Source: Candidatus Omnitrophota bacterium (GTDB lineage Bacteria > Omnitrophota > Gorgyraeia > Zapsychrales > Fredricksoniimonadaceae). From it: a stretch of DNA of 64,000 nucleotides. The notes under the pieces were generated by a model. That model did no database searches. It saw nothing but the letters and a program-made list of their open reading frames with translations, and was not told where the DNA came from. The translations under genes and the position numbers were made by a program. This document shows positions 36,059 to 55,899 of the stretch, in pieces. The number at the start of each line of letters is the position of its first letter. The first letter of the stretch is position 1. Where the stretch lies: contig CAIOPG010000006.1 in the NCBI GenBank assembly GCA_903860135.1, forward strand, positions 100,275 to 164,274, written 5' to 3'.

Positions 36059-36069
36059 CAACTTAGAAT

Positions 36070-36216
36070 GTGATCTTTTACGGGTTCTTAAAGCTTGCAG
36101 TAGCCCTTGCTGCTCAGACAGCAGAAACAGCTTTTTCTTGAAATATTTTTATGGAAAGCCTGGTTTCTGAACTCGCGACGGCGGGATACTTCCAGCTTTA
36201 AACCAGTAAAAGCTAG
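36070..36216 (+). repeat. copy 1 of a ~146-nt structured intergenic element (nested inverted repeats), upstream of cobA–hemD
   Basis: About 90% identical to 40967–41111. An outer stem cttttacgggttcttaaagcttg / cagctttaaaccagtaaaag encloses an inner hairpin ctgct-cagac-agcag. Confidence 0.8.
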
Positions 36217-36254
36217 GCGTAATTTAATATATGAAAAGATCGGGACATTAGGTT

Positions 36255-39972: not shown

Positions 39973-40940
39973 TCATTTCATGGAATATCACCAAGGCCTG
40001 CCAGTTGAAATGCCTGCATTGTTACCGGGATGCCGGCACGAAAGAAGCCGATGAATTGACTCCGGCGGAGGGTAAGGAGTTGATCGACGAGATCGCTCTC
40101 GCCGGGTTCAAGATCCTCATTATCAGCGGCGGAGAGCCGTTGATGCGCCCGGATGTGTATGACCTGATCGCGCATGCCAGGTCTAAAGGGTTGCGTCCGG
40201 TATTAGGGACCAACGGGTGCATGATCGACCGCACGGTGGCACGGAAGCTCAAGGAAGCCGGGCTCACGCGGGCCGGGATCAGCCTCGACAGCACCGATGC
40301 GGCGGTGCATGACAACTTCCGCCAGTATCCGGGCGCCTGGCAAGAAAGCCTGGCTGGGATGAAAGCGTGCCTCGATGAAGGCCTGGATTTTCAGATCCAC
40401 ACCACGGTGACAACGTATAATTATCAGAATGTCGAGAAGATCACGGACCTGGCGGTTACCCTTGGCGCCAAGGCGCATCATATCTTTTTTCTTGTCCCGA
40501 CGGGCAGAGGCAAAGACCTTGAAGCCCTGATCCCCTCGCATGCATATCAGGCGCTCTTGAAAAAGATCATGCACAAACAGCGTGCGGTCTCCATCGAATT
40601 AAAACCGGTGTGCGCGCCGCAATTTGTACCCTTGGCACAGGACATGCATCAGCCGACACGGTTTCAGCGCGGCTGTCTGGCGGGGGTCAGCTATTGCTGT
40701 ATCCTGCCCAATGGGGATGTGCATCCATGTCCCTATTTCCCGATCAAGGTTGGGAACACGCGCGCACAGAAATTCAGCGCGCTGTGGAAAAGCCATCCGC
40801 TGTTCAAGGAGTTGCGCGACGGGGAGTATAGCGGTAACTGCGGCGGCTGTCTGCATAAAACGACCTGCGGCGGGTGCCGTGCCCGGGCCTATGCCGCGAC
40901 GGGCAATTACATGGATTTTGACCCGGAGTGCATTTATTAA
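39969..40940 (+). CDS. radical-SAM/SPASM enzyme of the alternative haem pathway (AhbC/AhbD type)
   Basis: ITKACQLKCLHCY motif and a C-terminal Cys cluster (CGGCLHKTTCGGCRARA). Confidence 0.65.
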   Translation: MIISWNITKACQLKCLHCYRDAGTKEADELTPAEGKELIDEIALAGFKILIISGGEPLMRPDVYDLIAHARSKGLRPVLGTNGCMIDRTVARKLKEAGLTRAGISLDSTDAAVHDNFRQYPGAWQESLAGMKACLDEGLDFQIHTTVTTYNYQNVEKITDLAVTLGAKAHHIFFLVPTGRGKDLEALIPSHAYQALLKKIMHKQRAVSIELKPVCAPQFVPLAQDMHQPTRFQRGCLAGVSYCCILPNGDVHPCPYFPIKVGNTRAQKFSALWKSHPLFKELRDGEYSGNCGGCLHKTTCGGCRARAYAATGNYMDFDPECIY

Positions 40941-40966
40941 TTGTGCGTGTTGCTTGAAAATATCAG

Positions 40967-41111
40967 TGTGATCTTTTACCGGTTCTTAAGGCTTGCGGAT
41001 GCCTTGCTGCTCAGACAGCAGAAACAGCTTTTTCTTGAAATACTTTAAGGAAAGCTTGGTTTCTGAACTCGCGACGGCGGCACTCTTCAGCCTTAAACCG
41101 GTAAAAGCTAG
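40967..41111 (+). repeat. copy 2 of the ~146-nt structured intergenic element, upstream of ahbA
   Basis: Same architecture as copy 1. Its outer stem is cttttaccggttcttaaggcttg / cagccttaaaccggtaaaag, with compensatory changes (aag→agg in the 5' arm paired with ctt→cct in the 3' arm) relative to copy 1. Confidence 0.8.
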
Positions 41112-41130
41112 TCGGAAATATGGTTATTAT

Positions 41131-41583
41131 ATGTTGACTATAAAAGATAAGAAATTTCTCAGGAAGCTTCAGACGGATTTCCCGTTGGTGTCCCGGCCTT
41201 TTGCTGTGTTGGCGGCAGAGCAGGGAGTTACCGAGGCGGAGCTGTTGGCTTATTTCAAGGATTTGCGTCAACAAGGTGTCCTGCGTTATATCGCGGTGAT
41301 GTTTGAATTGAAGGCGCTGGGTATTATTTCAAGTTTGATCGGTATGCGCGTCCCTGCGGACAAACTTGATGCGACGGTGGCTATCATCAATGCGTATCCG
41401 AATGTAAGCCATAATTATCTGCGCGAAGGTGAGTACAATGTCTGGTTCACTGTCAGTGCGGCGTCGGAACGCCGTCTTAAATCGATCCTGGCAGATATCC
41501 GCAAGAAGAGCGGTATTAAAGCTATGCTGGACCTAAGGACGCGGCGGGTTTTTAAGAATCAGGCTGTCTTTGAATTGAAATGA
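41131..41583 (+). CDS. siroheme decarboxylase subunit (AhbA/AhbB; NirD/NirL-like Lrp/AsnC fold)
   Basis: About 150 aa, similar to NirDLGH-type subunits. The start is placed after the repeat element; the listed ORF 40993.. reads through the repeat. Confidence 0.7.
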   Translation: MLTIKDKKFLRKLQTDFPLVSRPFAVLAAEQGVTEAELLAYFKDLRQQGVLRYIAVMFELKALGIISSLIGMRVPADKLDATVAIINAYPNVSHNYLREGEYNVWFTVSAASERRLKSILADIRKKSGIKAMLDLRTRRVFKNQAVFELK

Positions 41584-41584
41584 T

Positions 41585-42055
41585 ATGAAAATATCCAAAG
41601 AAATCATCTTTGCCCTTGCGGCGCCATTAAAACTGGTTAAACAACCGTATGCCGCCATCGCCAAAGAATTGGGCATCGACGAAGCGACCCTTTTAACCAA
41701 GATCAGGCAATGCAAGGCTGCGGGCGTTATTCGCCGTGTGGGTGTTGTTCTGGGGCATTTCAAGGCCGGATACACGAGCAATGCGCTGGTCAGCTGGAAT
41801 GTCGCCGAAGCTGATCTTGAGGCTCAGGGCAAACTACTGGCCACGTTTCCTCAAGTTACTCACTGCTATGTGCGTCAGACGTATCCGCAGTGGCCGTACA
41901 GCCTTTATACCATGGTGCACGCGCGGCATGCTAAAGAGCTGGCGGCGACGATCAAGGCCATGGCGCAGCAGTCGGGGATTAAGGATTACACGATCAGGAC
42001 AACGCTCAAGGAATTCAAAAAGATCAAAAGTGATCTGAAAGGGATACTCGCATGA
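41585..42055 (+). CDS. siroheme decarboxylase subunit (AhbA/AhbB paralogue)
   Basis: Paralogous to the preceding gene (...LGIDEATLLTKIRQ...AGVIRRVG...). Confidence 0.7.
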   Translation: MKISKEIIFALAAPLKLVKQPYAAIAKELGIDEATLLTKIRQCKAAGVIRRVGVVLGHFKAGYTSNALVSWNVAEADLEAQGKLLATFPQVTHCYVRQTYPQWPYSLYTMVHARHAKELAATIKAMAQQSGIKDYTIRTTLKEFKKIKSDLKGILA

Positions 42056-43314
42056 AATTTGATCGATCCAGGAAACTTTTTACGGAGGCCTGCCGTTATT
42101 TTCCTGGCGGCGTTAATAGCCCGGTGCGTGCCTTTGGTGCGGTGGGCGGGAGCCCTCTTTTTATCAAGAAAGGCGCCGGGTCGAAGATCACCGATGTTGA
42201 CGGGAATACGTACATTGATTATGTGATGAGCTGGGGGGCGTTGATCCTCGGGCATGCGGTTCCGGAAGTTGTAGCGGCTGTCAGTAAGGCGGCGGCTTTA
42301 GGGTCAAGTTTCGGCGCGCCGACTGAGTCCGAATCGAAGCTGGCAACGGTTATTTCACACGCAATACCGTCGATGGAGCGCCTGCGTTTGGTTAGTTCGG
42401 GGACGGAAGCCACGATGAGCGCGATCCGTCTAAGCCGCGGGTTCACGGGGCGCGACAAGATCATCAAATTTGATGGCTGTTATCACGGGCATGGCGACAG
42501 CTTGCTCGTCAAGGCTGGTTCGGGGGCGGCCACGCAGGGCATCCCCGGGAGCGCGGGGGTGACAGCGGCCCTCAGCCGGGATACGCTGGTATGCCCTTAC
42601 AATGATATAAGTGCGTTGCGTAAGATTGTCGCCCAGCATGCGGCGTCGATCGCCTGTGTGATCATCGAGCCGGTGGCGGCGAATATGGGCGTTGTGATGC
42701 CCGATGCGGCTTTTCTTCAGGCAGTGCGCGACCTTACGGCCAGGCATGGCATTGTCCTGATCTATGATGAGGTCATCACAGGCTTCCGTTTTCATTTTGG
42801 CGGGGTGCAGACCCTGCAGAAGATCAAGCCTGACCTGACCTGCCTCGGCAAGATCATCGGCGGGGGGCTTCCGATCGCCGCTTACGGCGGGAAGAAAGAG
42901 ATCATGGATTGCGTGGCACCTTTAGGCCAGGTGTATCAGGCCGGGACGCTGTCGGGCAATCCCGTTGCTGTGGCGGCGGGACTGGCGATGCTGAAAGTGC
43001 TCAAGACCAAAGATTATGCCGCGCTCGATCACAAGGCCGCGCGCCTGTGTGAAGGGTTGAAAGAAAGTTTCACACGCAAGCATATGCCAGTCACGATCAA
43101 TCGCGCCGGGTCATTGTTCACTGTTTTCTTTACACCTCAGCCCGTCACAGATTTTACGACGGCAAGAACGTCTGATACGAAGAAATATGCGGCGTATTTC
43201 AAGGCCATGCTTCATGCGGGCATCAATTTGCCGCCGTCGCAGTTCGAGGCGCAGTTCCTTTCTTTTAGCCACACGGATAAAGATGTGGCCTTGACGCTCA
43301 GGGCGGTAAAATAA
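42052..43314 (+). CDS. hemL: glutamate-1-semialdehyde 2,1-aminomutase
   Basis: ...YFPGGVNSPVRAF... and the PLP Lys region. Confidence 0.9.
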   Translation: MKFDRSRKLFTEACRYFPGGVNSPVRAFGAVGGSPLFIKKGAGSKITDVDGNTYIDYVMSWGALILGHAVPEVVAAVSKAAALGSSFGAPTESESKLATVISHAIPSMERLRLVSSGTEATMSAIRLSRGFTGRDKIIKFDGCYHGHGDSLLVKAGSGAATQGIPGSAGVTAALSRDTLVCPYNDISALRKIVAQHAASIACVIIEPVAANMGVVMPDAAFLQAVRDLTARHGIVLIYDEVITGFRFHFGGVQTLQKIKPDLTCLGKIIGGGLPIAAYGGKKEIMDCVAPLGQVYQAGTLSGNPVAVAAGLAMLKVLKTKDYAALDHKAARLCEGLKESFTRKHMPVTINRAGSLFTVFFTPQPVTDFTTARTSDTKKYAAYFKAMLHAGINLPPSQFEAQFLSFSHTDKDVALTLRAVK

Positions 43315-44796
43315 ATGGGCAAAGATCAACTGAAAGCGTCGCAGGTGCGACCTTTTTTCGTGTGTCTTTTATTTGCCATTTGCTTTCTTTTGCGGCTCTA
43401 TCAGCTGGGTTATCATGACCTCTGGTTTGACGAGGTCGCTTCGGCAGGTTATGCCCAGCACCCGTGGGGTAACTGGAATGCGCCATTTTATTGGATATTC
43501 TTGCATGGGTGGGTGAAATTCTTCGGATTTTCTGAATTTGTTTTACGGTTTCCTTCTCTCATTTTCAGTCTTTCTTCCGTTGTTTTTTTATTCTTTCTTG
43601 GTAAAGAGTTGTTCAACGCGCGGGTTGGTTTTTGTGCGGCTTTGTTCATGGGTTTGTCGCCTTTTCATTTATGGTATGCGCAAGAGGCCAGGGATTACAC
43701 TATGGTCTTGTGCCTAGGCGTCTGCGCTTCCTTATTGTTGGCCAAGGCATTGAAGCAGGACCGTAGTATATTCTGGATATCTTTCGCGCTAGTTTCCATG
43801 ATCGGGCTGTATACAAATTATTTCTATGCTGTTCTGCTGATGGCACAGGGCGGTGTGGTCTTGGCTTTTAAAAGGCATCAGATAAAGTTCTTGGAAGTGC
43901 TTTCTTTCCTGATTCCAGTGCTGGCCTTTTCTTATTACCTGCCACATTTCTTTGAGAAGTTCATTTATATTGCGCATGGGTTTTGGGTTCCCCGGCCATC
44001 GCCTGCATCGTTACTAATAACGTTGGAGAATTTTTTGCTGGGATATAATGGCTGGCCGGCATTATATTTGGTAGCGGACATCGTTATAGGCATCTTGTTC
44101 GTTGCAGCCTGCTGGAATGCTTATCGGCAGAAGTTGTACCAGAATTTTCTGGTATGCCTGGTCTTATTTTTGATCCCTATTGGTTGCATTTTTATCTTTT
44201 CCATAAACTTTTTCTCCATTTACCTGGATCGCGCGTTTCTGATCTTCACGCCTTTCTTTTATCTTGTTTTATCTGTAGGCCTGGGTTATGCCTCGCGCTG
44301 GTTCAGGTTCTTGGCGGTGGCTGTTCTGGCGGGATTGATGTTAACGTCGGTCGCGGCATTCTTTAAGAATCATATGGTGATGCCTTTTGAACATCATGTG
44401 GGGGTCTGGCTCAAGAAACCGATTAAGCCTGTAGGGGTTTTTCTGAAGGCGCATCTGGCGTCGGATGATGCCTTGGCGTTTACAAATAATTCTATTCTAC
44501 GATCTTTGTATTTCTACCATCATCAAGGTCTACCTTTATATTATTATTTATTTGATCCAAGGTTCCCCGAGACCGACTGGCAGCGGCCGATCCAGGAAAG
44601 TCCTCGTTGCATTCCGTATTACAAGGCAAGCGGGTTGAAATTCAATAAATTATGGGTGGTTTTCTCGGACTGGCCGCGGGACAAAACCCTTGGCCCAAGT
44701 TCGCAATCGACCAAGGACTGGCTGGACAAGAATATGGTTCAGGAATTTTCCAGGGAATTTGATGGACTGATGGTGGTACGCTATGCGCGCCCATAA
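43315..44796 (+). CDS. GT-C glycosyltransferase (GT39/ArnT/PMT-like polytopic membrane protein)
   Basis: About 11 TMs, with the DE motif in the first loop (HDLWFDEVASA) typical of GT39/GT83. Confidence 0.7.
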   Translation: MGKDQLKASQVRPFFVCLLFAICFLLRLYQLGYHDLWFDEVASAGYAQHPWGNWNAPFYWIFLHGWVKFFGFSEFVLRFPSLIFSLSSVVFLFFLGKELFNARVGFCAALFMGLSPFHLWYAQEARDYTMVLCLGVCASLLLAKALKQDRSIFWISFALVSMIGLYTNYFYAVLLMAQGGVVLAFKRHQIKFLEVLSFLIPVLAFSYYLPHFFEKFIYIAHGFWVPRPSPASLLITLENFLLGYNGWPALYLVADIVIGILFVAACWNAYRQKLYQNFLVCLVLFLIPIGCIFIFSINFFSIYLDRAFLIFTPFFYLVLSVGLGYASRWFRFLAVAVLAGLMLTSVAAFFKNHMVMPFEHHVGVWLKKPIKPVGVFLKAHLASDDALAFTNNSILRSLYFYHHQGLPLYYYLFDPRFPETDWQRPIQESPRCIPYYKASGLKFNKLWVVFSDWPRDKTLGPSSQSTKDWLDKNMVQEFSREFDGLMVVRYARP

Positions 44797-46009
44797 CGCT
44801 AGCGATCATCGCACCCCGGCCACGCGGCTGTTGTGCGCGATAATTGGCGAAGTTGTGACCCAAAAGAAGGACGAGCGTATGCCCGCCCTGATCGGGGCAT
44901 CGACGATCGATTGGGATGTTTTTAAGCGCGGTCTTGGGTATCATGGCCTAGGGCCGTTGGCGTACATGAGCTTGAAAGCGTATGCGGACACGTTGCCGCC
45001 TGATATCGTCGGTACGTTAAAGGCAACATATTATGCTTCCTTAAAACAGGTCGTGGCTTTTGAGGAGCATTTCTTTATTTTGGAAGCGGCATGTGCTCAA
45101 CAAGGACTGTTGATGGTACCGTTCAAGGGCATGGCCATCGTTGAGGATCTTTACGCGGAAAATCCTGTCCGGCCAAGTTGTGACATTGATGTTTTGGTGC
45201 ACCGGGAGGATATTGATCAGGTTATCACGGTCATGGAGGGGCTGGGATTTGAAAAAGAATTATCCGGGCTGAAAGAGTCTTACTGGAGGACACAGTATCA
45301 TATTGCTCTTCGGAAGAATGTCCATGGCCGGCGGCCGTTAGTGGTCGAGGTGCATTGGGATATTGATTATCCGCGCAAAGGGCGGCCTTTATTACCGGAG
45401 AAGTTTAACCGGTTAAGGGAGATCGCCGTCGGCGGGCGAAAGGTCAAGATTCTTTCGGTGGAAGATACGTTCTTTGGCTTAGCTTTGCACCAGCGGCGGT
45501 TTGGTCAGGTCCTCAACCTTAAGGATGTATGTGACATGGGCCGGTTGCTGAAGAAATACGCGGCTACTTTTGACTGGGATTATATTATTCGGGAGAGCAG
45601 GAGTTCTAGGTTGCGCGCCACGGTTTATTTCGCGCTTTTTCAGGTGAAATTCTTCTTTGACATTCATGTTCCTGAGCAGGTGATGGCGGTTTTGGCTGTG
45701 CCATCTTTCCAGAAAAAGATGATCGAGCGTTTTATAAGAAGGAATACCTTTTGGGATGATCCGGATTATAATTTAAAAGACCGTTTTCTAAAGGTGCATT
45801 TTTTGTTATATGATGACATTTGGGAGCCGGCAGTTTATATTCTGGTGATCCCTATTGAACAGTTTGCCAAGTTCTATGAACTCGATCCATATACTAGGAA
45901 GACAAGGTGGCTGTATCACTTCAGTTTCTTTTATGTGATATTCCGCCGAGTTCTGGTGTATTGGAGAAGATTATGGAAATGGTTTGACCGGAGGTGTCAT
46001 GAAGAATAA
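44783..46009 (+). CDS. nucleotidyltransferase-family protein of the type found in RiPP clusters (PF14907-like), putative
   Basis: The hG[S/G]-type region ...MVPFKGMAIVEDLY...CDIDVLVH resembles a minimal nucleotidyltransferase (GS...D.D). The true start is probably the internal MPALIG (~44879). Confidence 0.45.
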   Translation: MRAHNASDHRTPATRLLCAIIGEVVTQKKDERMPALIGASTIDWDVFKRGLGYHGLGPLAYMSLKAYADTLPPDIVGTLKATYYASLKQVVAFEEHFFILEAACAQQGLLMVPFKGMAIVEDLYAENPVRPSCDIDVLVHREDIDQVITVMEGLGFEKELSGLKESYWRTQYHIALRKNVHGRRPLVVEVHWDIDYPRKGRPLLPEKFNRLREIAVGGRKVKILSVEDTFFGLALHQRRFGQVLNLKDVCDMGRLLKKYAATFDWDYIIRESRSSRLRATVYFALFQVKFFFDIHVPEQVMAVLAVPSFQKKMIERFIRRNTFWDDPDYNLKDRFLKVHFLLYDDIWEPAVYILVIPIEQFAKFYELDPYTRKTRWLYHFSFFYVIFRRVLVYWRRLWKWFDRRCHEE

Positions 46010-47126
46010 TTTTTCGATCAATCAGCCTTTAGCGGCATTCTCGTTATGGCAGAAGTTTAAGGCGGAAAGAAGGTTGTATGCATTTGATCTGGAGATCACG
46101 GCCCGGTGCAATAACAACTGCCGTCACTGTTATGTGAATTATCCGGCGGATTGTAACGAGATCCGACAGAAGGAGCTCTCTCTAGATCAGATCAAGCACC
46201 TCGTTGACCAAGCGGTTGATATGGGTGCGTTGTGGTGCCTGATCACAGGCGGAGAGCCACTGTTGCGCCCGGACTTCTTTGATATTTATTTTTACATCAA
46301 AAGCAAAGGACTTTTGGTTTCGGTCTTTACTAACGCGACCATGATCACAGAGGAGCATGTGGCCTTCTTCAAGAAATATCCGCCACGCGAAATTGAGGTG
46401 ACGGTTTATGGCGTGACCTGCGCGACCTATGAGGATGTCAGCCGGGTCAAGGGCTCGTTTAGCCGGTTTATGCGTGGGGTGGATCTGTTGATGACAGGTG
46501 GCGTCAAGGTGCGTTTCAAAGCCATGGCCTTGCGTTCTAATGTTGATGGAATGCAGGCGATTGCTACTTTCTGCCGTGAAAGGACCCGCGATTATTTCCG
46601 GTTCGACCCATCCCTGCATCTGCGTTGTGATGGGGATATTCAACGGAATGAAGAGATCCGTTCCGAGCGATTGTCGCCCGCCGAGTTTGTGGCCCTTGAA
46701 AAAGCGGATGCGGAACGTTTCGGAGCACTCGAGAAGAACTGCGATAAACTCATTGTGCCTGCGCTGGAGCATCTTGCCTGCCATCATCTTTTCCATTGCG
46801 GGTCAGGCAATGGGAGTTTTTATGTCAGTTATGACGGCTTTTTCCGCTTGTGTTCGTCTTTGTGCCAGAAAGATTGTGTTTATGACTTAAAGAAAGGTTC
46901 GCTGAAAGAAGCCTGGGAGTGCTTTGTGCCACAAGTGCGCGCGATGACATCCGACAACAAGGAGTTCCTGGAAAAGTGCCGCGTGTGCCCGATCATCAAT
47001 CTCTGTCTCTGGTGCCCAGCGCACGCGCATCTTGAGACCGGTCGGCTCGACCAGCCAGTCCAATTTTTTTGCGATATAGCGCATGCACGGCAAGCTTCGC
47101 TTGAGGCGAATAATAAAGTTAGTTAA
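45984..47126 (+). CDS. radical-SAM/SPASM peptide-modifying enzyme (paralogue 1)
   Basis: CNNNCRHCY cluster, and a C-terminal SPASM-like Cys cluster (CGSGNGS...CRVCPIINLCLWCPAHA). Confidence 0.8.
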   Translation: MTGGVMKNNFSINQPLAAFSLWQKFKAERRLYAFDLEITARCNNNCRHCYVNYPADCNEIRQKELSLDQIKHLVDQAVDMGALWCLITGGEPLLRPDFFDIYFYIKSKGLLVSVFTNATMITEEHVAFFKKYPPREIEVTVYGVTCATYEDVSRVKGSFSRFMRGVDLLMTGGVKVRFKAMALRSNVDGMQAIATFCRERTRDYFRFDPSLHLRCDGDIQRNEEIRSERLSPAEFVALEKADAERFGALEKNCDKLIVPALEHLACHHLFHCGSGNGSFYVSYDGFFRLCSSLCQKDCVYDLKKGSLKEAWECFVPQVRAMTSDNKEFLEKCRVCPIINLCLWCPAHAHLETGRLDQPVQFFCDIAHARQASLEANNKVS

Positions 47127-47157
47127 ATGGGCGTCATAAATCTACGGAGGGTTCATA

Positions 47158-47342
47158 TGACTGAGAAAATGGATAAGAAATGGACTACGCCGCAGTTGAT
47201 TCAGTTGGTTAGAGGTGGCGAGGAGGAGGGTGTGTTGGGGGTGTGCAAATACTATATGACTGGTGGTCCGATTTATAGAGATTGTGTAACATATGAGGCC
47301 GATATGTCTGCTTATACTTGTTTTGCATATTCACCGTCGTAA
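47158..47342 (+). CDS. candidate RiPP precursor peptide (61 aa; 71 aa if started at 47127)
   Basis: RBS GGAGGG lies 5 nt upstream of the ATG at 47158. The sequence is MTEKMDKKWTTPQLIQLVRGGEEEGVLGVCKYYMTGGPIYRDCVTYEADMSAYTCFAYSPS, with 3 Cys, 6 aromatic residues, a GG motif and a C-terminal Ser. It lies between the rSAM gene and the ABC exporter and is followed by an AT-rich spacer. Confidence 0.4.
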
Positions 47343-47491: not shown

Positions 47492-49270
47492 ATGAACCCT
47501 CCTTGGAATCTTTTAAAAGAATTCTATCATTTCCTTGTCCCTTATTACCGCAAACAGGGTGTCGCCTTGGTGCTGACACTTGCCGGTGTCCTGCTCAGCC
47601 TTGTCAATCCTTACTTGACTAAATTGATGGTGGATCGCGCGATCATGGGCAAAGACGTGAAGATGTTCTTGATCCTCGGTGGGATCGGTGCTGGGGTATT
47701 CCTGCTGAACAGTCTTGTCAACGCGGGGGCGGAATACATCACCAAGGATATCAGGATCAGGCTTGGCTTTGATCTTAACAGGAAAATATTCACGCACCTT
47801 CAGCGGCTCCCCTTGGGTTTCTTCAAGATCAGGTCTACTGGGGAACATATGTTCAAGGTCAACTATGATGTGGACCGGGTGGCGGATCTGTTGAGTTTTA
47901 TTCCCCGCGACGCGGTCAATATTTTCCCTAAATTCCTGTGTACGTTTGTGATCATTGCTTGGCTGGATGGGTCGATGGCACTTGTTGCCCTGCTGGTACT
48001 GCCATTGGTATTTTGGCCTGTCAACCGGATGACCCAACGGATGCAGGAGGTGTACCGCGCCATGGTTGACAGATCCCAGGACATTTTCAGGAAGATGGGA
48101 GAAATATTCTCGCACATATACTTGGCTAAGGTATTCGGGAAGGAGCGGGCACAGACACGCGGATACCTGCGCGCGGTGATCGCCCGTATGCGCTGGGAAT
48201 TCAGTAACATTCGCCTTGAGGTGCTTAATACGCTCATGGCCGGCAGCCTCAATCGCGCGATCATCGCTGTTCTTACTTTGTTCGGTGCCTGGCAGGTGAT
48301 GCAAGGCAAGGTGACGCTGGGGACATTGGCCGCGGTGCTGGTCTATCTGGCGGAACTGGTCTTGTTGCAGAGTAGTGTTGTGTTCCTTTTTCAGCGGGTG
48401 AGTATGGGGCTCATTTGTTGTGGCCGGCTGGACGCCTTGTTGAACCAACCGCCGCAAGAGCTTCACGCGGACGGGGCAAAAGTCAACATGAGCGATGCCG
48501 TGGATATTCGGTTTAAAAATGTGTCATTCGGGTATCGTCCCTCTGAGATCATCTTACGGGATACGGCGTTTGAAATACCCGGCGGCTGGGTGGCCCTGGC
48601 TGGCGCTTCGGGCTGCGGGAAGACGACCATCATCAATCTTCTGCTGGGGTTTTATCAGCCGTTCCAGGGGCAGATATTCGTCGGCGGCCATGATATGCGT
48701 GCCATCGACTTGGCTTTTTGGAGAAACCAGCTTGGCGTCGTGACACAAGAACCTTTCTTGTGGGATGACACGGTGGCGAATAATTTGAAATATGCCTGCC
48801 CGCACGCATCTGATGATGAGATGGCTCGCGTGGCTCAGATGACCGGGGTGAACAATATGATTCGGTCACTGCCCCACGGCTATAACACGCTCATTGGCGA
48901 GCGGGGGTGCCTGCTTTCCGAAGGGCAGAAGCAACGCATCGCTCTGGCCAGGGCCTTGCTCAAAAGGCCGAAGATCCTTATCCTGGACGAAGCCATGTCG
49001 TCCATCGATGCTTTAAGTGAAGAGCAGATCATCGCGGTTCTACGCGCGATCCCGGAGGTCACGCAGGTCTTGCTTGTATCGCATCGCTGGTCGACAGTGT
49101 CCAGTTGTGATCATGTGCTATATTTTAACGGTGACCGGCCGGTAATAACCGGTCAGCCTGCGGATCTTATGCAGCATAACGCGGCGTTTCGTGCCCTTTT
49201 CGCCCGTCAGATGAACAATGATCGGGAACATATTCATGCTATACCAGCACTGGAGAATGAACATGCCTGA
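47492..49270 (+). CDS. ABC exporter, fused permease + ATPase (no C39 peptidase domain)
   Basis: Six TMs, then Walker A (GASGCGKTT), the signature LSEGQKQRIALARA and Walker B (ILILDEA). Confidence 0.85.
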   Translation: MNPPWNLLKEFYHFLVPYYRKQGVALVLTLAGVLLSLVNPYLTKLMVDRAIMGKDVKMFLILGGIGAGVFLLNSLVNAGAEYITKDIRIRLGFDLNRKIFTHLQRLPLGFFKIRSTGEHMFKVNYDVDRVADLLSFIPRDAVNIFPKFLCTFVIIAWLDGSMALVALLVLPLVFWPVNRMTQRMQEVYRAMVDRSQDIFRKMGEIFSHIYLAKVFGKERAQTRGYLRAVIARMRWEFSNIRLEVLNTLMAGSLNRAIIAVLTLFGAWQVMQGKVTLGTLAAVLVYLAELVLLQSSVVFLFQRVSMGLICCGRLDALLNQPPQELHADGAKVNMSDAVDIRFKNVSFGYRPSEIILRDTAFEIPGGWVALAGASGCGKTTIINLLLGFYQPFQGQIFVGGHDMRAIDLAFWRNQLGVVTQEPFLWDDTVANNLKYACPHASDDEMARVAQMTGVNNMIRSLPHGYNTLIGERGCLLSEGQKQRIALARALLKRPKILILDEAMSSIDALSEEQIIAVLRAIPEVTQVLLVSHRWSTVSSCDHVLYFNGDRPVITGQPADLMQHNAAFRALFARQMNNDREHIHAIPALENEHA

Positions 49271-50264
49271 GGTTTATTTACCATCTCGAAAAGTTTCTGA
49301 TTTACCGCAGATACCGCTCGATGGTCGCATGGAATTCATGGAAAATTGCGGTTCGTGTGCGTCGCATAGAGAACACTGCCGATTTTATCAGATCGCCGGT
49401 CTATCGATCCGGGTGGAATCTGACTTGCCGATGTCCGACCAGACCTTTCATTTGAAATTTAAGCATTTTGAGATCAAAGTCCCTAAGGCTGACATGATCA
49501 CGATCAGGCATCATTTTAGTTTGCCGAACCTTGATGGGAAAGACCTTGGCCGTGAGGTTTATCGTAAGGTACCGTGGGCTATTTACAGAAAGGGAAATTC
49601 CTGGATATATCTTGGTATTGCACCGACGGAAGGAGACAATTCTCTGCACCGGGTTGTTCGCTGTAATGATGATCATACGCAGGTGACGATCTATAATGAT
49701 AAAATGACAGAGGATGAATTTCTGAAAGGTGAACAACATTCATTGACCTTTTTTCCGACGGACCAGATTCTGATAGCGCGTGTCCTGGCTGACAGGAATG
49801 CTTTTTACCTGCATTCCTGCGGTGTCAGGTTCCACGGTCAGGGTCTTCTTTTTGCCGGGCACTCCGAGGCTGGCAAGTCCACCACGGCCACTATGTTAAA
49901 AGACCGGGCTGACATCCTTTGTGATGACCGGATGATCATTCGGGGAACCGGCACGGACCAGGGATTCGATATCCATGGGACATGGAGCCATGGGGATGTG
50001 CCGGATGTGTCGGCGGGATCCGCGCCACTACGGGCGATCATGTTTCTGGAAAAATCCGATGCTAACAGGCTTATCCGTCTCCATGACAAGAAGGAAATCA
50101 TACGCAGGATGCTCGAATGCCTCATCAGGCCTTTTGTGACCGCGGATTGGTGGCATAAAACCCTGTCGGTCGTGGAAAGGGTCGTTGATAATGTACCCTG
50201 TTATGTGCTCAAATTCGACCGGAGCGGCAAAGTGGTAGACCTGTTGCAGAAGGAGTTGCAATGA
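49263..50264 (+). CDS. HPr-kinase C-terminal-domain-like P-loop protein (HprK-related kinase), putative peptide kinase
   Basis: P-loop LLFAGHSEAGKSTTATML followed by ...DDRMIIR.. resembles the HprK/P C-terminal kinase fold. The start was chosen at the ATG at 49263 (an 8-nt overlap with the ABC stop). Confidence 0.55.
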   Translation: MPEVYLPSRKVSDLPQIPLDGRMEFMENCGSCASHREHCRFYQIAGLSIRVESDLPMSDQTFHLKFKHFEIKVPKADMITIRHHFSLPNLDGKDLGREVYRKVPWAIYRKGNSWIYLGIAPTEGDNSLHRVVRCNDDHTQVTIYNDKMTEDEFLKGEQHSLTFFPTDQILIARVLADRNAFYLHSCGVRFHGQGLLFAGHSEAGKSTTATMLKDRADILCDDRMIIRGTGTDQGFDIHGTWSHGDVPDVSAGSAPLRAIMFLEKSDANRLIRLHDKKEIIRRMLECLIRPFVTADWWHKTLSVVERVVDNVPCYVLKFDRSGKVVDLLQKELQ

Positions 50265-51439
50265 CCGCTGAGGCTTATCTTGTTCGACGGAATGTTAACC
50301 AACCGTCTTCAGGAAAAATATCACCGCCGCGTCTTTTAGGACGATTGGATATGATCCTTACCGAGCGTTGCAATAATAATTGTGTTCATTGCTACATAAA
50401 TCTTCCATCCGGCGACCTAGATGCTAGGAAGAAAGAATTATCGACGGATGAAATAAAGAATATCCTCAAAGAAGCCGTAACGTTAGGGTGCATGATGGTG
50501 CGTTTCTCTGGTGGTGAGCCGCTGTTACGCGAGGATTTTGGGGAACTCTATCTTTTTGCCCGAAGGCAGGGGCTTAAGGTGGCGATCTTCACCAATGCCA
50601 CGTGCATCACGCCAGACCTTGCCGATCTCTTTGCGCGTATTCCACCCAAAGAAAAGATCGAGATCACGGTGTATGGGATGAAGCAAGAATCTTACGAGGC
50701 GGTGACGTGCGTGCCAGGCTCTTTTGCCAAAGCCTGGCGGGGGATTCATTTACTTCAGGAAAGAAAAGTTCCTTTTGTGGTCAAAGGGGCATTGTTGCCG
50801 GATAATAAGGATGATGTCGATGAATTTGAGGCCTGGGCCGCGACCATCCCATGGATGGAAAAACTGCCTGGGTATTCCATGTTCTTTGACCTGCGATGCC
50901 GCCGGGAGGAAGGTAAAAATCGCAGTATAATGGCGGTAAGAGCGACGCCGGAGAACGGGGTTAAATTCATGACGCGTAGAAAAGAAGAATTTCTAAAAGA
51001 CCAAAAGCAATTCTGCTCCCAATTCATGCGCCCTTCTGGCGACAAACTTTTTTCGTGTGGTTCGGGCAAAGGGGGTGGGTGCGTTGATGCGTATGGCGGG
51101 TTTCAGATGTGCATGATGCTCCTGCATCCTGATACGGTCTATGATCTTAAACAGGGCACGCTTCAAGATGCGCTTGAAAGATCTTTTCCGGCTTGCCGTA
51201 ACACGACGGCGGTGAATAAGGATTATCTGCAACGGTGTGCCCGGTGTTTTCTTAAAGGCTTGTGTGAACAGTGCCCGGCGAAGTCATGGGCCGAGCACGG
51301 CACCCTCGATACGCCCGTTGAATATTTCTGCCAGGTAGCACACGCCCAGGCGCGCTTCCTTGGATTGATCGGTGAAGGTGAGAAGGCATGGGAAGTAGTG
51401 GACGCGGAGCAAAGGATTGAGAAATTCGTTAATAGTTAA
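50261..51439 (+). CDS. radical-SAM/SPASM peptide-modifying enzyme (paralogue 2)
   Basis: CNNNCVHCY cluster, a C-terminal Cys cluster (CGSGKGGGC...CARCFLKGLCEQCPAKS), and clear paralogy to 45984..47126. Confidence 0.8.
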   Translation: MTAEAYLVRRNVNQPSSGKISPPRLLGRLDMILTERCNNNCVHCYINLPSGDLDARKKELSTDEIKNILKEAVTLGCMMVRFSGGEPLLREDFGELYLFARRQGLKVAIFTNATCITPDLADLFARIPPKEKIEITVYGMKQESYEAVTCVPGSFAKAWRGIHLLQERKVPFVVKGALLPDNKDDVDEFEAWAATIPWMEKLPGYSMFFDLRCRREEGKNRSIMAVRATPENGVKFMTRRKEEFLKDQKQFCSQFMRPSGDKLFSCGSGKGGGCVDAYGGFQMCMMLLHPDTVYDLKQGTLQDALERSFPACRNTTAVNKDYLQRCARCFLKGLCEQCPAKSWAEHGTLDTPVEYFCQVAHAQARFLGLIGEGEKAWEVVDAEQRIEKFVNS

Positions 51440-51448
51440 GGAGGTCGG

Positions 51449-51760
51449 ATGCAGAAACACGTTATATTAGAAAGTATTTACAAGCCTTCGGAAGATGTGG
51501 TGGCGCGGGATGTCCAAGGCGAATTTGTCATTATACCTATCACGAGCGGTATCGGTGACGGTCAGGATGACATTTTTACAATGAACGACACTGGTCGCGT
51601 TGTCTGGGATCACCTCGACGGCAAAAGGACGCTGAAAGAAATAGGGCTGGAACTTTCCGGAAACTACGACGCCGCACCCGGACAAGTCGAACAGGATGTT
51701 GCCGGTATTGTGCAGGAATTGTTGAATAAGAATATTGTAGTAGAAGTCCCTGCGGTTTGA
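51449..51760 (+). CDS. PqqD-family protein (stand-alone RiPP recognition element)
   Basis: About 100 aa; ...GEFVIIPI...FTMNDTGRVVWDHLDGKRTLKEIGLELS...DVAGIVQELLNKNIV matches the PqqD/RRE pattern. Confidence 0.65.
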   Translation: MQKHVILESIYKPSEDVVARDVQGEFVIIPITSGIGDGQDDIFTMNDTGRVVWDHLDGKRTLKEIGLELSGNYDAAPGQVEQDVAGIVQELLNKNIVVEVPAV

Positions 51761-51819
51761 TCGGATAGTGTCAAAAGTTTTATGAAGAATGTGCATAAAA
51801 AAGGATTTTGATATGAATT

Positions 51820-51852
51820 CCCCTCCCCGCTTCAGCGTGGGAGGGAGTTTTA
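51820..51852 (+). terminator. putative intrinsic terminator after pqqD-like gene
   Basis: GC-rich stem ccctccccgct / agcgtgggaggg with a 2-nt loop, followed by aGTTTTaa. Confidence 0.45.
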
Positions 51853-51929
51853 AGCTATTTAGATATAAGGGTTTTGCGAGTTGGAAGCTAGAACTTTTGA
51901 CAGAACACGCCTAAAAGCGAGGGTATCTT

Positions 51930-53027
51930 ATGCGTTGCTGTAACCGTCATTATCAGGATTTCTGCGGGCATATTTATAAATATGCCCCGGCCTGTGAGGC
52001 GATCAACAGCAAGGACGCGGTCAATGCGGCGTGTTCTTTAAGAAATCAAAGTGATACCGGTTTGGTTGTGCGATTTTTTGACTCTGGGCGAGAGATCGTC
52101 GACAAGAACAAGATGGTTTTCCATCCGCAGGGGATATGCATGTACCCGTGCATACGGCCCGGGGACAGGCTTCACATAGAATCGCGCTCGATAGAACAGG
52201 TCAAGATTGGGGATATTGCGGTGTATCGCCGGTTCAACCGGCTGTTTGCCCACCGTGTTATTGGCGCAGGCGAAAAGCTTGGTGCCCATTATATCATCAC
52301 CCGCCCTGATACGGCACCGCGCGGTGATGATGGTCCGACGTTCGATGAGGATATTCTGGGGGTTGTGGTGCGCCTTGAACGCAAGGGAAAGATACTGGGT
52401 ATTGTTCGCAAAACATACCCGCTGTTGCATAGAATACTCCTCGATATTCACGTTCTTCCGTATCGTTTGGCCGGTCAGCTTTGGGCTTGGCTTTCTTTTC
52501 ATTTAAGCCTTATTCAACAGTATTCATTCTACCGGGTCTTCGCGCAATACTTGTTTATGAACAAGAAGGTTGAATTTTCTCTGCAGGTCCCGATCAATGC
52601 CAGGCCGGACAGCCGGCTTTTTCAGAAACTTTCCCGTGAAGGATTGCTCGACCGGTTGAGCGCTGAAGAACCTGTTGCCAAATGGTCCCTGCACGTGGCA
52701 GTGAAGGCGAGATCTGTTGGGTATGTGTCATTCGTCCGTAAGCCAGAGTCCTGCCTTCACCGTGGCTGGTGGGTGTATGAAGCGCATATTGATCCTTTAT
52801 ATCGAGGGACAGCGGTTGAAACGAGATTGCTCCAGGAAGTTGTTCTTATCCTCGGTCGTGCCGGGATCAAAGCAGTTTCTGTCACCGCCTTCGGGGATGC
52901 GATAAAGGATCGGCTGTTTTTCAAGAATATGGGATTTAACGAAGTTTCTTCGTATCGAGATGTTTTGTTAAAAGGTCAATGCTACGGGGCTGTGGAACGG
53001 GTGATCATGAAAATGTATATTTGTTGA
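51930..53027 (+). CDS. S26/S24-like peptidase domain (apparent Cys/His variant) fused to a GNAT-like acetyltransferase domain, putative
   Basis: Signal-peptidase-like boxes: GICMYPCIRPGD (box B, with Cys at the Ser position), IGDIAVYRR (box C), LFAHRVIGAGE (box D, with His at the Lys position). The C-terminal ...YRGTAVETRLLQEVVLILGRAGIKAVSV...FFKNMGF resembles GNAT motif A. Confidence 0.4.
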   Translation: MRCCNRHYQDFCGHIYKYAPACEAINSKDAVNAACSLRNQSDTGLVVRFFDSGREIVDKNKMVFHPQGICMYPCIRPGDRLHIESRSIEQVKIGDIAVYRRFNRLFAHRVIGAGEKLGAHYIITRPDTAPRGDDGPTFDEDILGVVVRLERKGKILGIVRKTYPLLHRILLDIHVLPYRLAGQLWAWLSFHLSLIQQYSFYRVFAQYLFMNKKVEFSLQVPINARPDSRLFQKLSREGLLDRLSAEEPVAKWSLHVAVKARSVGYVSFVRKPESCLHRGWWVYEAHIDPLYRGTAVETRLLQEVVLILGRAGIKAVSVTAFGDAIKDRLFFKNMGFNEVSSYRDVLLKGQCYGAVERVIMKMYIC

Positions 53028-53125: not shown

Positions 53126-53704
53126 ATGGAAAGAACGGATGAAGAACTGATCCGCGCGTATGCCTCCGGCGAACCGGACGCTGTGGGGCTGTTGTTTGCG
53201 CGGCACAAGGGGAGCATTTTCAATTTTGCCTTGCGGCTTATTGGCAACAGGGCAGATGCCGAAGATGTGACCAGCGATGTCTTTCTTCAGCTCTTTAACA
53301 GGCGCTATCAGGCAACCCCGCAGGCCAAATTCACCACCTGGCTTTTTACGGTGGCGCGCAATGCCTGTCTGTCCAGGATAAGGACCCGCAATATGCTGGG
53401 GTCTTTCTGGTTCAAGCGGGACGGCGACGATGGTTTTGAGGAACAGGAGATAGCTGATCCTGCGGGCAATCAAGGTGAGGCTTTAAGGAATAAGGAAAAA
53501 GCCAAGATGGTGAAGCAGGCCGTTATGGCCTTACCTCCGATGCAGAAAGAAGCGTTGATCCTGCGTGAGTATTGCAACAAGGATTATGCCGAGATCGCGG
53601 CGATCCTGGGCTGTTCCTTTGATAATGTTAAAGTGCTTATATTCCGCGGCCGCGAGCGTTTGCGCGTAAGCCTGGCCGCCTGGATGAAGGAGGAAACCCT
53701 ATGA
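53126..53704 (+). CDS. ECF (group IV) sigma-70 factor
   Basis: Region 2 (...DVTSDVFLQLF...) and region 4 (...EALILREYCNKDYAEIAAILGCSFDNVKVLIFRGRERLR). Confidence 0.85.
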   Translation: MERTDEELIRAYASGEPDAVGLLFARHKGSIFNFALRLIGNRADAEDVTSDVFLQLFNRRYQATPQAKFTTWLFTVARNACLSRIRTRNMLGSFWFKRDGDDGFEEQEIADPAGNQGEALRNKEKAKMVKQAVMALPPMQKEALILREYCNKDYAEIAAILGCSFDNVKVLIFRGRERLRVSLAAWMKEETL

Positions 53705-55899
53705 ACGAGCAAGACAAGCTCCTCATATCCGCTTACGCCGACGGCGCGCTCTCTCCAGACGATGCCGCTCGTGCCGAAAGCCTCCTGGCCGGTGATCGTG
53801 CGTGCCGGGCCTACCTCGAGGACATCCGTAAGATTTCCATGTCGCTGTCGGTGGTGAAGGACGAACAGCTCTCTCCCGATGCTGAGATCCAGATCATCCA
53901 ACGCTTGCACAAGGAGACAACGTATATGAAACCCAATACATGGAAGACAGCAGCAACCGTGTGCGTGACCATTGTGGTCGCGTTTTTGGTAATGCAGAAT
54001 TATGCACACAGGACATTGCAGGGACGATTAAAGGATGCGAATGTACTGTTTCGTGACAGTATTGGATCAACGTTGAAGTATGAACCGTATTATACAAATA
54101 CAAGTGCCGCTTCGGATAAGTCTTCTGTAAAGCATGCGGAAGGGTATGTTGATTCGACTGTCTATTCAAGCGGTCTAATGCGCGATACTATGTCCCGTAA
54201 CGCAAAGTCTATTGGTACTGATGCTAAAGATGCTTATGGGGGTGTTGCGCCGGGGGTTGATACATCTGTCTATTTCGAAGCGCCTGTAGAAGGGGCTCTC
54301 ATCTTAAAATCTTCTTTCGCTGGTTTTGGAGGGGAGAATGATAAAGTAAGTAATGATATCGGCGATCAGTATTCTACCGCTACTTACGCTAATTATCAGA
54401 GGGGCGTCAGTGCGCTTGATCATCAACAATATACGCCTTCCTACACCGAAGAATACCCCTTCTTCAATGAGAATGAATTCTTGACCACCGACCAGAACCC
54501 GTTGTCCACATTCTCGACAGATGTTGACACGGCCTCTTACAGCAATCTGCGGCGTTATCTGACCCGGAATCAGGTGCCGCCACAGGATGCGGTGCGGCTC
54601 GAGGAGATGATCAATTACTTCTCTTATAATTATCCCAATCCCAAAAATGGGGAACCGTTCTCGATCACGACGGACCTGGCGGTGTGCCCATGGGCCCAGA
54701 AACATTTGCTGTTGCGCATTGGGCTAAAGGGGCGGGTGCCAGACGAAGAAACGCTGCCGGCGAGCAATCTGGTGTTTCTCATTGACGTGTCCGGCTCCAT
54801 GCAAGATGGCAACAAACTGCCCCTTCTTAAAGAAGGTTTCAAGATGATGGTGCGTCAATTGCGCCCTGAAGACCGGGTATCGATCGTTGTTTATGCGGGT
54901 TATGCCGGAAAGGTGCTCGACACCACGTCGGGGTATGACAAGGACGCGATCATTAATGCCATTGATAATCTGCAAGCCGGTGGTTCGACAGCCGGCAATG
55001 AAGGGATTCAGCTGGCGTATCGGACGGCCCGGGAAAGCTTTATCCGGGGCGGGAACAATCGCGTGATCCTGGCCACCGACGGGGATTTTAACGTGGGCTT
55101 GTCGGATATCGGTGCCTTGACGCGCATGATCGAGGATAAACGCCGCGAAGGTGTTTTTCTGACGATATTGGGCGTGGGCAACGGGAATTATAAGGATGAC
55201 CGTTTGCAGGCACTGGCAGATAAAGGCAACGGGAATTATTTCTACCTTGATTCTATCCGCGAAGCTCAGAAAGTCCTGGTCCATGAATTGGGGTCCACTT
55301 TATTCACGATCGCCAAGGACGTGAAGATCCAGGTGGAATTTAATCCGTCGCAGGTCAAGGCCTATCGCTTGCTGGGTTATGAGAAACGCATCATGGCCAA
55401 GCAGGATTTCAATAATGACGCCAAGGATGCCGGCGAGATCGGGGCCGGGCATACGGTCACCGCCTTGTATGAACTGGTGCCCCCCGGTGTTGATGATGTG
55501 CCTGTGAGTGTGGATGATCTCAAATATGCCCGCACCAGGCCGTCATTCGGTGCGGAAGTTTTGACAGTAAAATTGCGTTATAAGGAACCGGACGGGAATG
55601 TGAGCAAGCTTATTACCAAAGGTGTTGGCAAGTCCTGGTTGCAGCTGGAACCATCGGGCGATTTCGCCTGGTCTGCCGCCGTGGCCGAATTCGGGATGCT
55701 GATCAAGGCTTCTTCGAGCCGGGCCAGGGCGTCGTTCGATCATGTCCTTAAAGCCGCCAGGGCAGCCAAAGGAGATGACAGATCCGGCCAGCGCCAGGAG
55801 TTCATCGACATGGTTGAAACCGCCCGGGATATTGTCCCTGAAAGTAATGGGCGGATCAATTTCAAGAGTGAAAAGCGAGAAGAGCGCCGGGAGGATTAG
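53701..55899 (+). CDS. anti-sigma factor (N-terminal zinc-finger-like anti-sigma domain, one TM) with periplasmic VWA domain
   Basis: N-terminal ...LISAYADGALSPDD... anti-sigma motif, a TM (AATVCVTIVVAFLV), a VWA MIDAS motif (LVFLIDVSGSM), and a 4-nt overlap with the sigma gene. Confidence 0.7.
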   Translation: MNEQDKLLISAYADGALSPDDAARAESLLAGDRACRAYLEDIRKISMSLSVVKDEQLSPDAEIQIIQRLHKETTYMKPNTWKTAATVCVTIVVAFLVMQNYAHRTLQGRLKDANVLFRDSIGSTLKYEPYYTNTSAASDKSSVKHAEGYVDSTVYSSGLMRDTMSRNAKSIGTDAKDAYGGVAPGVDTSVYFEAPVEGALILKSSFAGFGGENDKVSNDIGDQYSTATYANYQRGVSALDHQQYTPSYTEEYPFFNENEFLTTDQNPLSTFSTDVDTASYSNLRRYLTRNQVPPQDAVRLEEMINYFSYNYPNPKNGEPFSITTDLAVCPWAQKHLLLRIGLKGRVPDEETLPASNLVFLIDVSGSMQDGNKLPLLKEGFKMMVRQLRPEDRVSIVVYAGYAGKVLDTTSGYDKDAIINAIDNLQAGGSTAGNEGIQLAYRTARESFIRGGNNRVILATDGDFNVGLSDIGALTRMIEDKRREGVFLTILGVGNGNYKDDRLQALADKGNGNYFYLDSIREAQKVLVHELGSTLFTIAKDVKIQVEFNPSQVKAYRLLGYEKRIMAKQDFNNDAKDAGEIGAGHTVTALYELVPPGVDDVPVSVDDLKYARTRPSFGAEVLTVKLRYKEPDGNVSKLITKGVGKSWLQLEPSGDFAWSAAVAEFGMLIKASSSRARASFDHVLKAARAAKGDDRSGQRQEFIDMVETARDIVPESNGRINFKSEKREERRED

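Follow-up and report, generated by a model that had tools for sequence, protein, structure and literature searches.

Within a 64,000-nucleotide stretch of DNA from a Candidatus Omnitrophota bacterium (assembly GCA_903860135.1, contig CAIOPG010000006.1, positions 100,275 to 164,274; hereafter the window), one open reading frame (ORF) encodes a 365-residue protein that joins a signal-peptidase-like domain, with a cysteine at the nucleophile position, to a GNAT-like domain. The sequence comparisons and structural models presented here point, with a confidence somewhat better than even, to a dedicated cytoplasmic Cys-His-Asp leader peptidase, which would belong to a radical S-adenosylmethionine (SAM) cassette for a peptide that is made on ribosomes and modified after translation (RiPP) and would be coupled to N-acetylation by the fused GNAT. 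A wider evolutionary proposition follows the same lines, namely that this soluble Sec11-like Cys-His-Asp domain may constitute the first natural cysteine-peptidase lineage in clan SF, recruited from an archaeal-type signal peptidase as a RiPP leader peptidase and coupled to a GNAT (in some relatives also to a PF14907 domain) as a cleave-and-cap maturase; we hold the case for and against it to be evenly balanced.

Signal-peptidase fold of the N-terminal domain

The original prediction, made by eye from the sequence, had proposed an S26/S24 fold fused to a GNAT-like domain, with Cys and His in place of a Ser/Lys dyad, and had suggested profile alignment and AlphaFold modelling as a check. Both procedures uphold the S26 fold, and the alignments uphold the residue equivalences. 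Specifically, the NCBIfam model TIGR02228 (archaeal-type signal peptidase I) matches residues 69-147 with an E-value of 8.8e-9, and a peptidase-domain profile built from 32 family members aligns in hhalign with human SEC11A (E 1.1e-5) and with the archaeal signal peptidase I P0192 (E 1.5e-6, probability 90%), which itself scores 125.7 bits against TIGR02228. Residues 56-121 of the SEC11A sequence used for hhalign agree with the PDB alignment obtained by phmmer. Since Foldseek with the full-length AlphaFold2 model returned GNATs only, a separate model of residues 1-167 was needed, the core of which has a predicted local distance difference test score (pLDDT) of 80-92. The top 39 Foldseek matches of this shorter model all belong to clan SF, the best in the PDB being SEC11A (7p2p_A) and SEC11C, followed by LexA, SipA and SpsB (these five with a probability of ~1.0), UmuD and lambda cI. 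These data show that the N-terminal domain has the fold of the signal peptidases of archaea and the endoplasmic reticulum (ER), the S26B type. The bacterial Ser/Lys dyad of LepB and LexA, which had served as the initial frame of reference, is accordingly the wrong one, as the domain is of the archaeal/ER type and its catalytic unit is likely to be a Cys-His-Asp triad rather than a dyad.

Putative catalytic residues and their conservation

Three independent alignments (phmmer against the PDB, hhalign with SEC11A and hhalign with the archaeal enzyme) agree in placing Cys70 on SEC11A Ser56 and His108 on the general base, so that both columns had been read correctly by eye. In SEC11A, the catalytic triad consists of Ser56, His96 and Asp122, and Asp116 and Arg97 form a structural salt bridge (bioRxiv 10.1101/2020.11.11.378711). 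Because archaeal/ER-type (S26B) peptidases use Ser-His-Asp, His108 is an ordinary residue and not the anomaly that it had been taken for, and the sole unusual catalytic residue, as judged from these alignments, would be the Cys that replaces Ser. The domain keeps the full Sec11 constellation of nucleophile, His, Arg-Asp salt bridge and box-E acid.

Conservation across the family, which had been named as a further check, supports the same assignment. Among 189 relatives retrieved, 166 have the nucleophile column, which holds Cys in 156, Ser in 9 and Pro in 1; His108 is kept in 188, Arg109 in all 189 and Asp127 in 185, and position 134 is Asp or Glu in 170 of the 189. A column that admits Cys or Ser only, standing beside invariant His, Arg and Asp, has the pattern expected of a working nucleophile; it is not that of a structural or metal-binding Cys, nor that of a decayed pseudo-enzyme. 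A rough neighbour-joining tree with parsimony gives ~9 independent changes between Cys and Ser, and most Ser variants neighbour Cys-bearing sequences. The exchange can also be seen within a single genome: one Omnitrophota metagenome-assembled genome (MAG; locus L005) contains two parallel cassettes, one with a Cys-type peptidase and the other with a Ser/His paralogue (the pair lies at L005 10001-11077 and L005 14164-15114, both on the forward strand). This paralogue (GGSMQPT...CHRI...TQGD) passes the TIGR02228 cut-off with 61.7 bits, and the named proteins nearest to it are archaeal ones called 'signal peptidase I'. As for the 23 relatives in which the nucleophile column is absent, all begin exactly at Met71; the idea that they are members that lack a nucleophile was dropped for the one in locus L010, where the upstream frame continues (...KGICMYPC), so that at least this case is an artefact of gene calling or masking.

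The peptidase-GNAT protein and its family

The ORF starts with an ATG that has a GAGGG 7 nt upstream. On the peptidase side, the motifs are CMYPCI (residues 70-75, nt 52137-52154), GDIAVYR (94-100) and AHRVIG (107-112); on the GNAT side, they are YRGTAVETRLL (291-301), GIKAVSV (312-318) and FFKNMGF (330-336). The protein is rich in Cys (C3, C4, C12, C22, C70, C74 and C275). Three of them form an N-terminal motif that occupies the place of the Sec11/SipW membrane anchor within a polar, Cys-rich N-terminus; it is kept across the close subfamily and also in Ser-nucleophile variants, varies independently of C74 and lies in a region of low pLDDT, and it may be a small metal-binding element in place of that anchor. 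No transmembrane segment was found in the protein, in which a Kyte-Doolittle scan gives no transmembrane-like 19-residue window outside the GNAT core, and a membrane anchor or a transmembrane linker was rejected on this basis. The protein is therefore taken to be cytoplasmic, and a Cys nucleophile is compatible with the reducing cytoplasm.

The fused GNAT-like domain, also part of the original prediction, becomes clear at the profile level. With the single sequence, the Pfam GNAT match has an E-value of 0.011, below the cut-off, and with the family profile the match to YycN reaches an E-value of 4.8e-5, alongside PDB matches to Naa30/40/50, RimI and PaiA. In addition, relatives match models of RimI-type N-alpha-acetyltransferases, and one of them (P0185) passes the Pfam GNAT gathering score. 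The full-length AlphaFold2 model (pLDDT 83) yields 303 PDB matches in Foldseek at E<=1e-3, and among the matches listed 50 of 50 are GNATs. The C-terminal domain thus has the GNAT fold. The family consensus GWW...RxRYRGTxxE...L...A...L...G...GF contains an R-Y-R-G-T-x stretch that fits motif A (Q/R-x-x-G-x-G/A).

The family is large and has so far been overlooked by annotation. A word-indexed search returned 46 homologues, all of them without Pfam domains and with uninformative names ('hypothetical protein', 'RimI-like'), and the peptidase-GNAT protein is covered by no model in Pfam or NCBIfam. In an exhaustive search, the peptidase-domain profile matched 9361 cluster representatives at E<=1e-3, of which 1041 reach E<=1e-10 and 83 reach E<=1e-30. 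Several members carry further domains: by domain scan, P0140 and P0162 are three-domain fusions of peptidase, GNAT and a C-terminal NTP_transf_5 (PF14907), P0149, P0188 and P0189 have similar lengths (the group spans ~745-767 aa), and in P0137 a methyltransferase domain precedes the peptidase. Such Rosetta-stone fusions are evidence for a substrate shared by these tailoring activities, and they tie the protein to the chemistry of the cassette in which it resides.

Genomic context

The genes around the peptidase-GNAT ORF (Table 1) combine a precursor peptide, a RiPP recognition element (RRE) and modifying enzymes conserved across taxa, which is what defines a RiPP biosynthetic gene cluster. Related loci, sought with an alignment of 15 closer family sequences, show a recurring order of (radical SAM-)ScmC, radical SAM, [precursor], PqqD, peptidase-GNAT, radical SAM, ATP-binding cassette (ABC) transporter and NTP_transf_5 in at least 10 loci, which come from MAGs of Omnitrophota, Planctomycetia and Desulfobacteraceae. 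By synteny, the association between the peptidase-GNAT gene and the RiPP cassette is strict. A domain scan found no other peptidase between 43315 and 53027, which leaves this protein as the only candidate. The earlier suggestion of a leader peptidase thus remains plausible in its RiPP context; the precursor is not adjacent to the gene, as had been stated, but lies 4.6 kb upstream.

Table 1. Features of the peptidase-GNAT protein and of its cassette in the window.
Feature	Coordinates	Strand	Evidence or remarks
PMT_2-type membrane glycosyltransferase, possible cluster member	43315..44796	+	domain scan; recurrence
PF14907 NTP_transf_5 nucleotidyltransferase-like protein	44783..46009	+	domain scan
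Radical SAM/SPASM peptide maturase 1	45984..47126	+	Pfam, NCBIfam, synteny
Precursor peptide, 61 aa, ATG behind GGAGG, presumed substrate	47157..47342	+	alignment with homologous peptides
ABC exporter (permease and ATPase) without C39 peptidase domain	47492..49270	+	ABC_membrane from aa 24, no peptidase match
ScmC / HPr-kinase-like protein	49218..50264	+	TIGR04249 E 1.8e-8, Hpr_kinase_C
Radical SAM/SPASM peptide maturase 2	50261..51439	+	Pfam, NCBIfam, conserved synteny
PqqD-family leader-binding protein (RRE)	51449..51760	+	Pfam PF05402 E 9e-14
Peptidase-GNAT ORF	51930..53027	+	365 aa; Cys-motif N-terminus, S26B-like domain, helical linker, GNAT
N-terminal three-Cys motif MxCxxxxYxxFCxxxYxxxPxC (C3, C12, C22)	51930..52004	+	aa 1-25; family alignments
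S24/S26-fold peptidase-like domain, archaeal/ER (S26B) type	52107..52400	+	aa ~60-157; TIGR02228, hhalign, Foldseek, pLDDT 80-92
Cys70 (TGC), nucleophile column = SEC11A Ser56	52137..52139	+	phmmer against PDB, two hhalign runs
His108-Arg109, box D = SEC11A His96-Arg97	52251..52256	+	phmmer against PDB, two hhalign runs
Box E, Asp127 = SEC11A Asp116; Asp133/Asp134 = Asp121/Asp122 region	52308..52331	+	hhalign
Two long linker helices, aa 165-208, not transmembrane	52422..52553	+	DSSP of model; Kyte-Doolittle scan
GNAT-fold acetyltransferase domain, motif-A-like LYRGTA(VE)	52566..53024	+	aa ~213-365; Pfam, profile, Foldseek

The precursor peptide combines a PqqA-like leader (KKWTTPQLIQLVRGGEEEGVL) with three invariant Cys, and its C-terminal residue is Ser. 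When the precursors of 10 loci are aligned, a leader box and the three Cys are invariant and the core varies; the leader consensus reads KKKWxKPxLIxLxRGxxEExVLxxCK, the variable core is Gly/Cys-rich, and the C-terminal Ser is present in nearly all. Homologous peptides occur in loci L001, L003, L009, L010, L012 and L013, and the Cys spacing is conserved. A second precursor type (..LPW..M.IT.V.L.P[ED]Q.VL..C..) was seen in L004 and L006. The 41-aa ORF at 51789-51914, directly upstream of the peptidase-GNAT gene, has no precursor features.

Several observations concern the remaining cassette genes. As listed, the ScmC-like ORF overlaps the end of the ABC gene by 53 nt (49218-49270, forward strand), and a later ATG (MNMPEVY...) may be the actual start. 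Pfam PF27840 (ScmC) matches the homologous loci, and many other loci encode ScmC as a fusion with a radical SAM domain at the N-terminus (~650 aa), a domain that the version in the window lacks. A PMT_2 glycosyltransferase lies near the cassette in three loci (window 43315-44796, L004/L005 1-2077 and L015 6722-8281), with 35.6% identity between the copies of the window and of L015, and it may belong to the pathway. The 170-nt gap between the PqqD gene and the peptidase-GNAT gene contains a hairpin rich in GC, CCCCUCCCCGC...GCGUGGGAGGG, with a short U-run behind it (51821-51851, forward strand). The 81-nt region that includes it (51795-51875) has a minimum free energy of -23.8 kcal/mol (z = -2.1 against shuffles), and the hairpin does not appear in the list from a consensus terminator scan; it could be a partial terminator or an attenuator before the peptidase gene.

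Upstream of the cassette, a complete-looking operon for siroheme-dependent (Ahb-type) haem biosynthesis (34479-43314, forward strand) encodes a CysG-like NAD-binding protein, hemC, a cobA/hemD fusion, two radical SAM proteins (AhbC/AhbD-like), hemB, two NirD/L-like siroheme decarboxylase subunits and hemL. Downstream (53126-55899, forward strand), the first gene encodes an extracytoplasmic function (ECF) sigma factor, and after it comes an anti-sigma-like protein of 732 aa that has vWA and YfbK_C domains. With the haem operon on one side and the sigma factor on the other, the RiPP cluster therefore ends at the peptidase-GNAT gene. From 56038 onwards, ORFs resemble the first genes of a nuo (NADH dehydrogenase) operon, as judged by ORF translations only.

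Proposed mechanism and alternatives

In the model that we favour, the PqqD protein would bind the PqqA-like leader (WxxPxL...), and the radical SAM enzymes would cross-link the core at its three invariant Cys. Cys70, activated by His108 (which would in turn be oriented by Asp134 or Asp133), would then attack a peptide bond and form a thioester acyl-enzyme, with the cut probably falling within the invariant E-x-V-L-x-x-C-K box or directly behind it. Subsequently, the fused GNAT would acetylate the newly exposed alpha-amine or the conserved Lys, and the ABC transporter would export the product. By analogy with lasso peptides that are phosphorylated or glycosylated, the ScmC-like and NTP_transf_5 (PF14907) proteins would probably decorate the invariant C-terminal Ser. 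The cleavage of the precursor, its role as the substrate, the position of the cut and the acetylation are inferred. That a thiol can work in this fold has an engineered precedent, as the S90C variant of the E. coli leader peptidase reportedly retains activity.

A number of points weigh against this reading. On the peptidase side, the protein scores 35.4 bits against TIGR02228, under the curated cut-off of 51.85; the equivalent of SEC11A Asp122 is ambiguous by one residue between Asp133 and Asp134 in hhalign; the Cys70-His108-Asp geometry is deduced from alignments only; and the precursor shows no obvious small-x-small (AxA) signal-peptidase site. On the acetyltransferase side, the matches to Acetyltransf_7 (16.6 vs 27 bits) and Acetyltransf_1 (14.7 vs 20.7 bits) fall under the gathering scores, and the protein reads DPLYRGTAVE where the family has RxRYRGTxxE, so that two Arg are lost. 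Furthermore, members of 283-297 aa (P0039, P0040-P0044; L001 10001-10852) end soon after motif A, without the last third of the GNAT, and no separate GNAT was seen in the L001 locus; acetylation is therefore unlikely to be universal in the family. Finally, our literature search found nothing relevant on any family member, including under SynChlorMet, ScmC, PF14907 and RiPP signal peptidase.

The alternatives differ in what they would have the Cys70 site do. It could serve a thioester-forming transpeptidase or acyl-transferase, in which the acyl-enzyme is resolved by an amine in a macrocyclisation or ligation and the GNAT binds or positions the acceptor, as modelled on the pilin-cyclising S26C peptidase TraF, sortases and asparaginyl ligases. 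Cys nucleophiles favour aminolysis of the acyl-enzyme, which by inference would suit such a reaction, the preference of the family for Cys over Ser (156 vs 9) suggests that the thiol matters, the invariant C-terminal Ser and Lys of the precursor could serve as partners, and the fold, to judge by the clan-SF matches, is shared with TraF-type S26 enzymes. Yet Ser does occur at this column, both in natural variants and in the paralogue of an equivalent cassette, the best sequence matches are hydrolases of the Sec11/SipW type rather than TraF, and a leader that stands at the N-terminus and carries an RRE-binding motif requires a hydrolase to remove it, of which no other is encoded; we consider a transpeptidase unlikely. 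A pseudo-peptidase is quite unlikely as well. In that case, the S26-like domain would be a chaperone or scaffold for leader or core, like SipA of Streptococcus pyogenes, and the GNAT would provide the sole chemistry. SipA is indeed among the structural matches, the protein misses the TIGR02228 cut-off as described, and PqqD-type cassettes often use non-catalytic binding domains. Pseudo-enzymes, however, normally lose their catalytic residues, whereas here the Sec11 columns (H, R, D, D/E) are near-invariant and the nucleophile is Cys or Ser bar one Pro; moreover, the cassette would be left with no leader peptidase.

Two further readings carry still less weight. In one, Cys70 would be part of a metal or redox site, of Zn or Fe-S, and its partners there would be either His108 and Asp or C74 and the N-terminal Cys motif; this would fit a Cys-rich protein in an Fe-S-rich pathway whose three-Cys motif is kept in the close subfamily. 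The corresponding CxxxC (C70/C74) metal site was rejected, given that only 79 of the 189 relatives have C74 and that its occurrence does not follow that of the N-terminal motif; in addition, the nine relatives with Ser at position 70 are otherwise intact, and Ser is a poor metal ligand, which makes this option very unlikely. Extremely unlikely, finally, is a LexA/UmuD-like (S24) self-cleaving module or an ordinary secretory signal peptidase. The former is suggested by LexA, UmuD and lambda cI among the fold matches, but the protein has neither a DNA-binding domain nor an Ala-Gly-type self-cleavage loop, and its base is His, not Lys. The latter is suggested by TIGR02228 being a signal-peptidase model, but a protein without a membrane anchor could not reach secretory preproteins. 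The strict association with RiPP cassettes speaks against both, and a dedicated leader peptidase remains the reading that we prefer.

Implications

If Cys70 is a working nucleophile, the signal-peptidase fold would join the few protease folds that run on Ser or Cys, and the family would represent both a new family of cysteine peptidases and a new class of leader peptidase for RiPP biosynthesis. The widespread, unstudied SynChlorMet-type radical SAM cassette, which occurs in Omnitrophota, Planctomycetota and Desulfobacterota, would also gain the protease that it has been missing. In the natural Cys/Ser pairs, an experiment on nucleophile preference already lies prepared, and a soluble, leader-directed protease fused to an acetyltransferase would be of practical use in RiPP engineering.

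Comparison with known systems

The cassette resembles the SynChlorMet (SCM) cassette of Haft in its two radical SAM/SPASM proteins, its PqqD-like protein and its HPr-kinase-like ScmC, and for the neighbouring genes in the window the NCBIfam models that rank first or nearly so include ScmC (TIGR04249), ScmD (TIGR04248) and ScmE/F (TIGR04250/04251). Unlike true SCM equivalogs, however, these neighbours score far under the equivalog cut-offs (34 vs 125, 28 vs 100 and 74-82 vs 400 bits), which makes it a related cassette only; a literature search found no published description of a peptidase component of SynChlorMet. With RimI/Naa-type and RiPP acetyltransferases, such as MdnD/MvdB, the N-terminal GNAT acetyltransferases of microviridin, the protein shares the GNAT fold and presumably an action on the amine exposed after leader removal. 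It differs from them in that its GNAT is fused to a presumed leader peptidase and has a partly degenerate motif A.

The proposed change of nucleophile has a counterpart in clan PA (chymotrypsin-like), in which serine proteases and the viral 3C cysteine proteases share a fold; there, as in the S90C variant of LepB mentioned above, the fold and the His base are kept and the nucleophile switches between Ser and Cys. The present domain belongs to a different clan, SF, for which we know of no described natural Cys member and for which a literature search returned none. Within this clan, it shares the beta-fold and the nucleophile position with LepB/SpsB (S26A) and LexA/UmuD (S24), but those enzymes use a Ser/Lys dyad and are membrane-bound (LepB) or self-cleaving repressors (LexA), whereas its own base is His.

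The closest likeness is to Sec11, SPC18/21 and Bacillus SipW (S26B, TIGR02228), with which the domain has in common the fold, boxes B-E (x-M-x-P, GD-I-x-V, H-R and T-x-x-D...D) and, among the catalytic features, the base, the salt bridge and the acid of box E. What sets it apart is the Cys nucleophile, its solubility, the Cys-motif N-terminus, the GNAT fusion, the RiPP cassette and a score below the cut-off. It is not counted here as an S26B member, since three features that define that family are missing: a serine as nucleophile, an anchor in the membrane that puts the active site on its trans side, and a score above the curated cut-off. Taken together, these comparisons define the protein as a derived, soluble, thiol variant of the Sec11/SipW-type signal peptidase.

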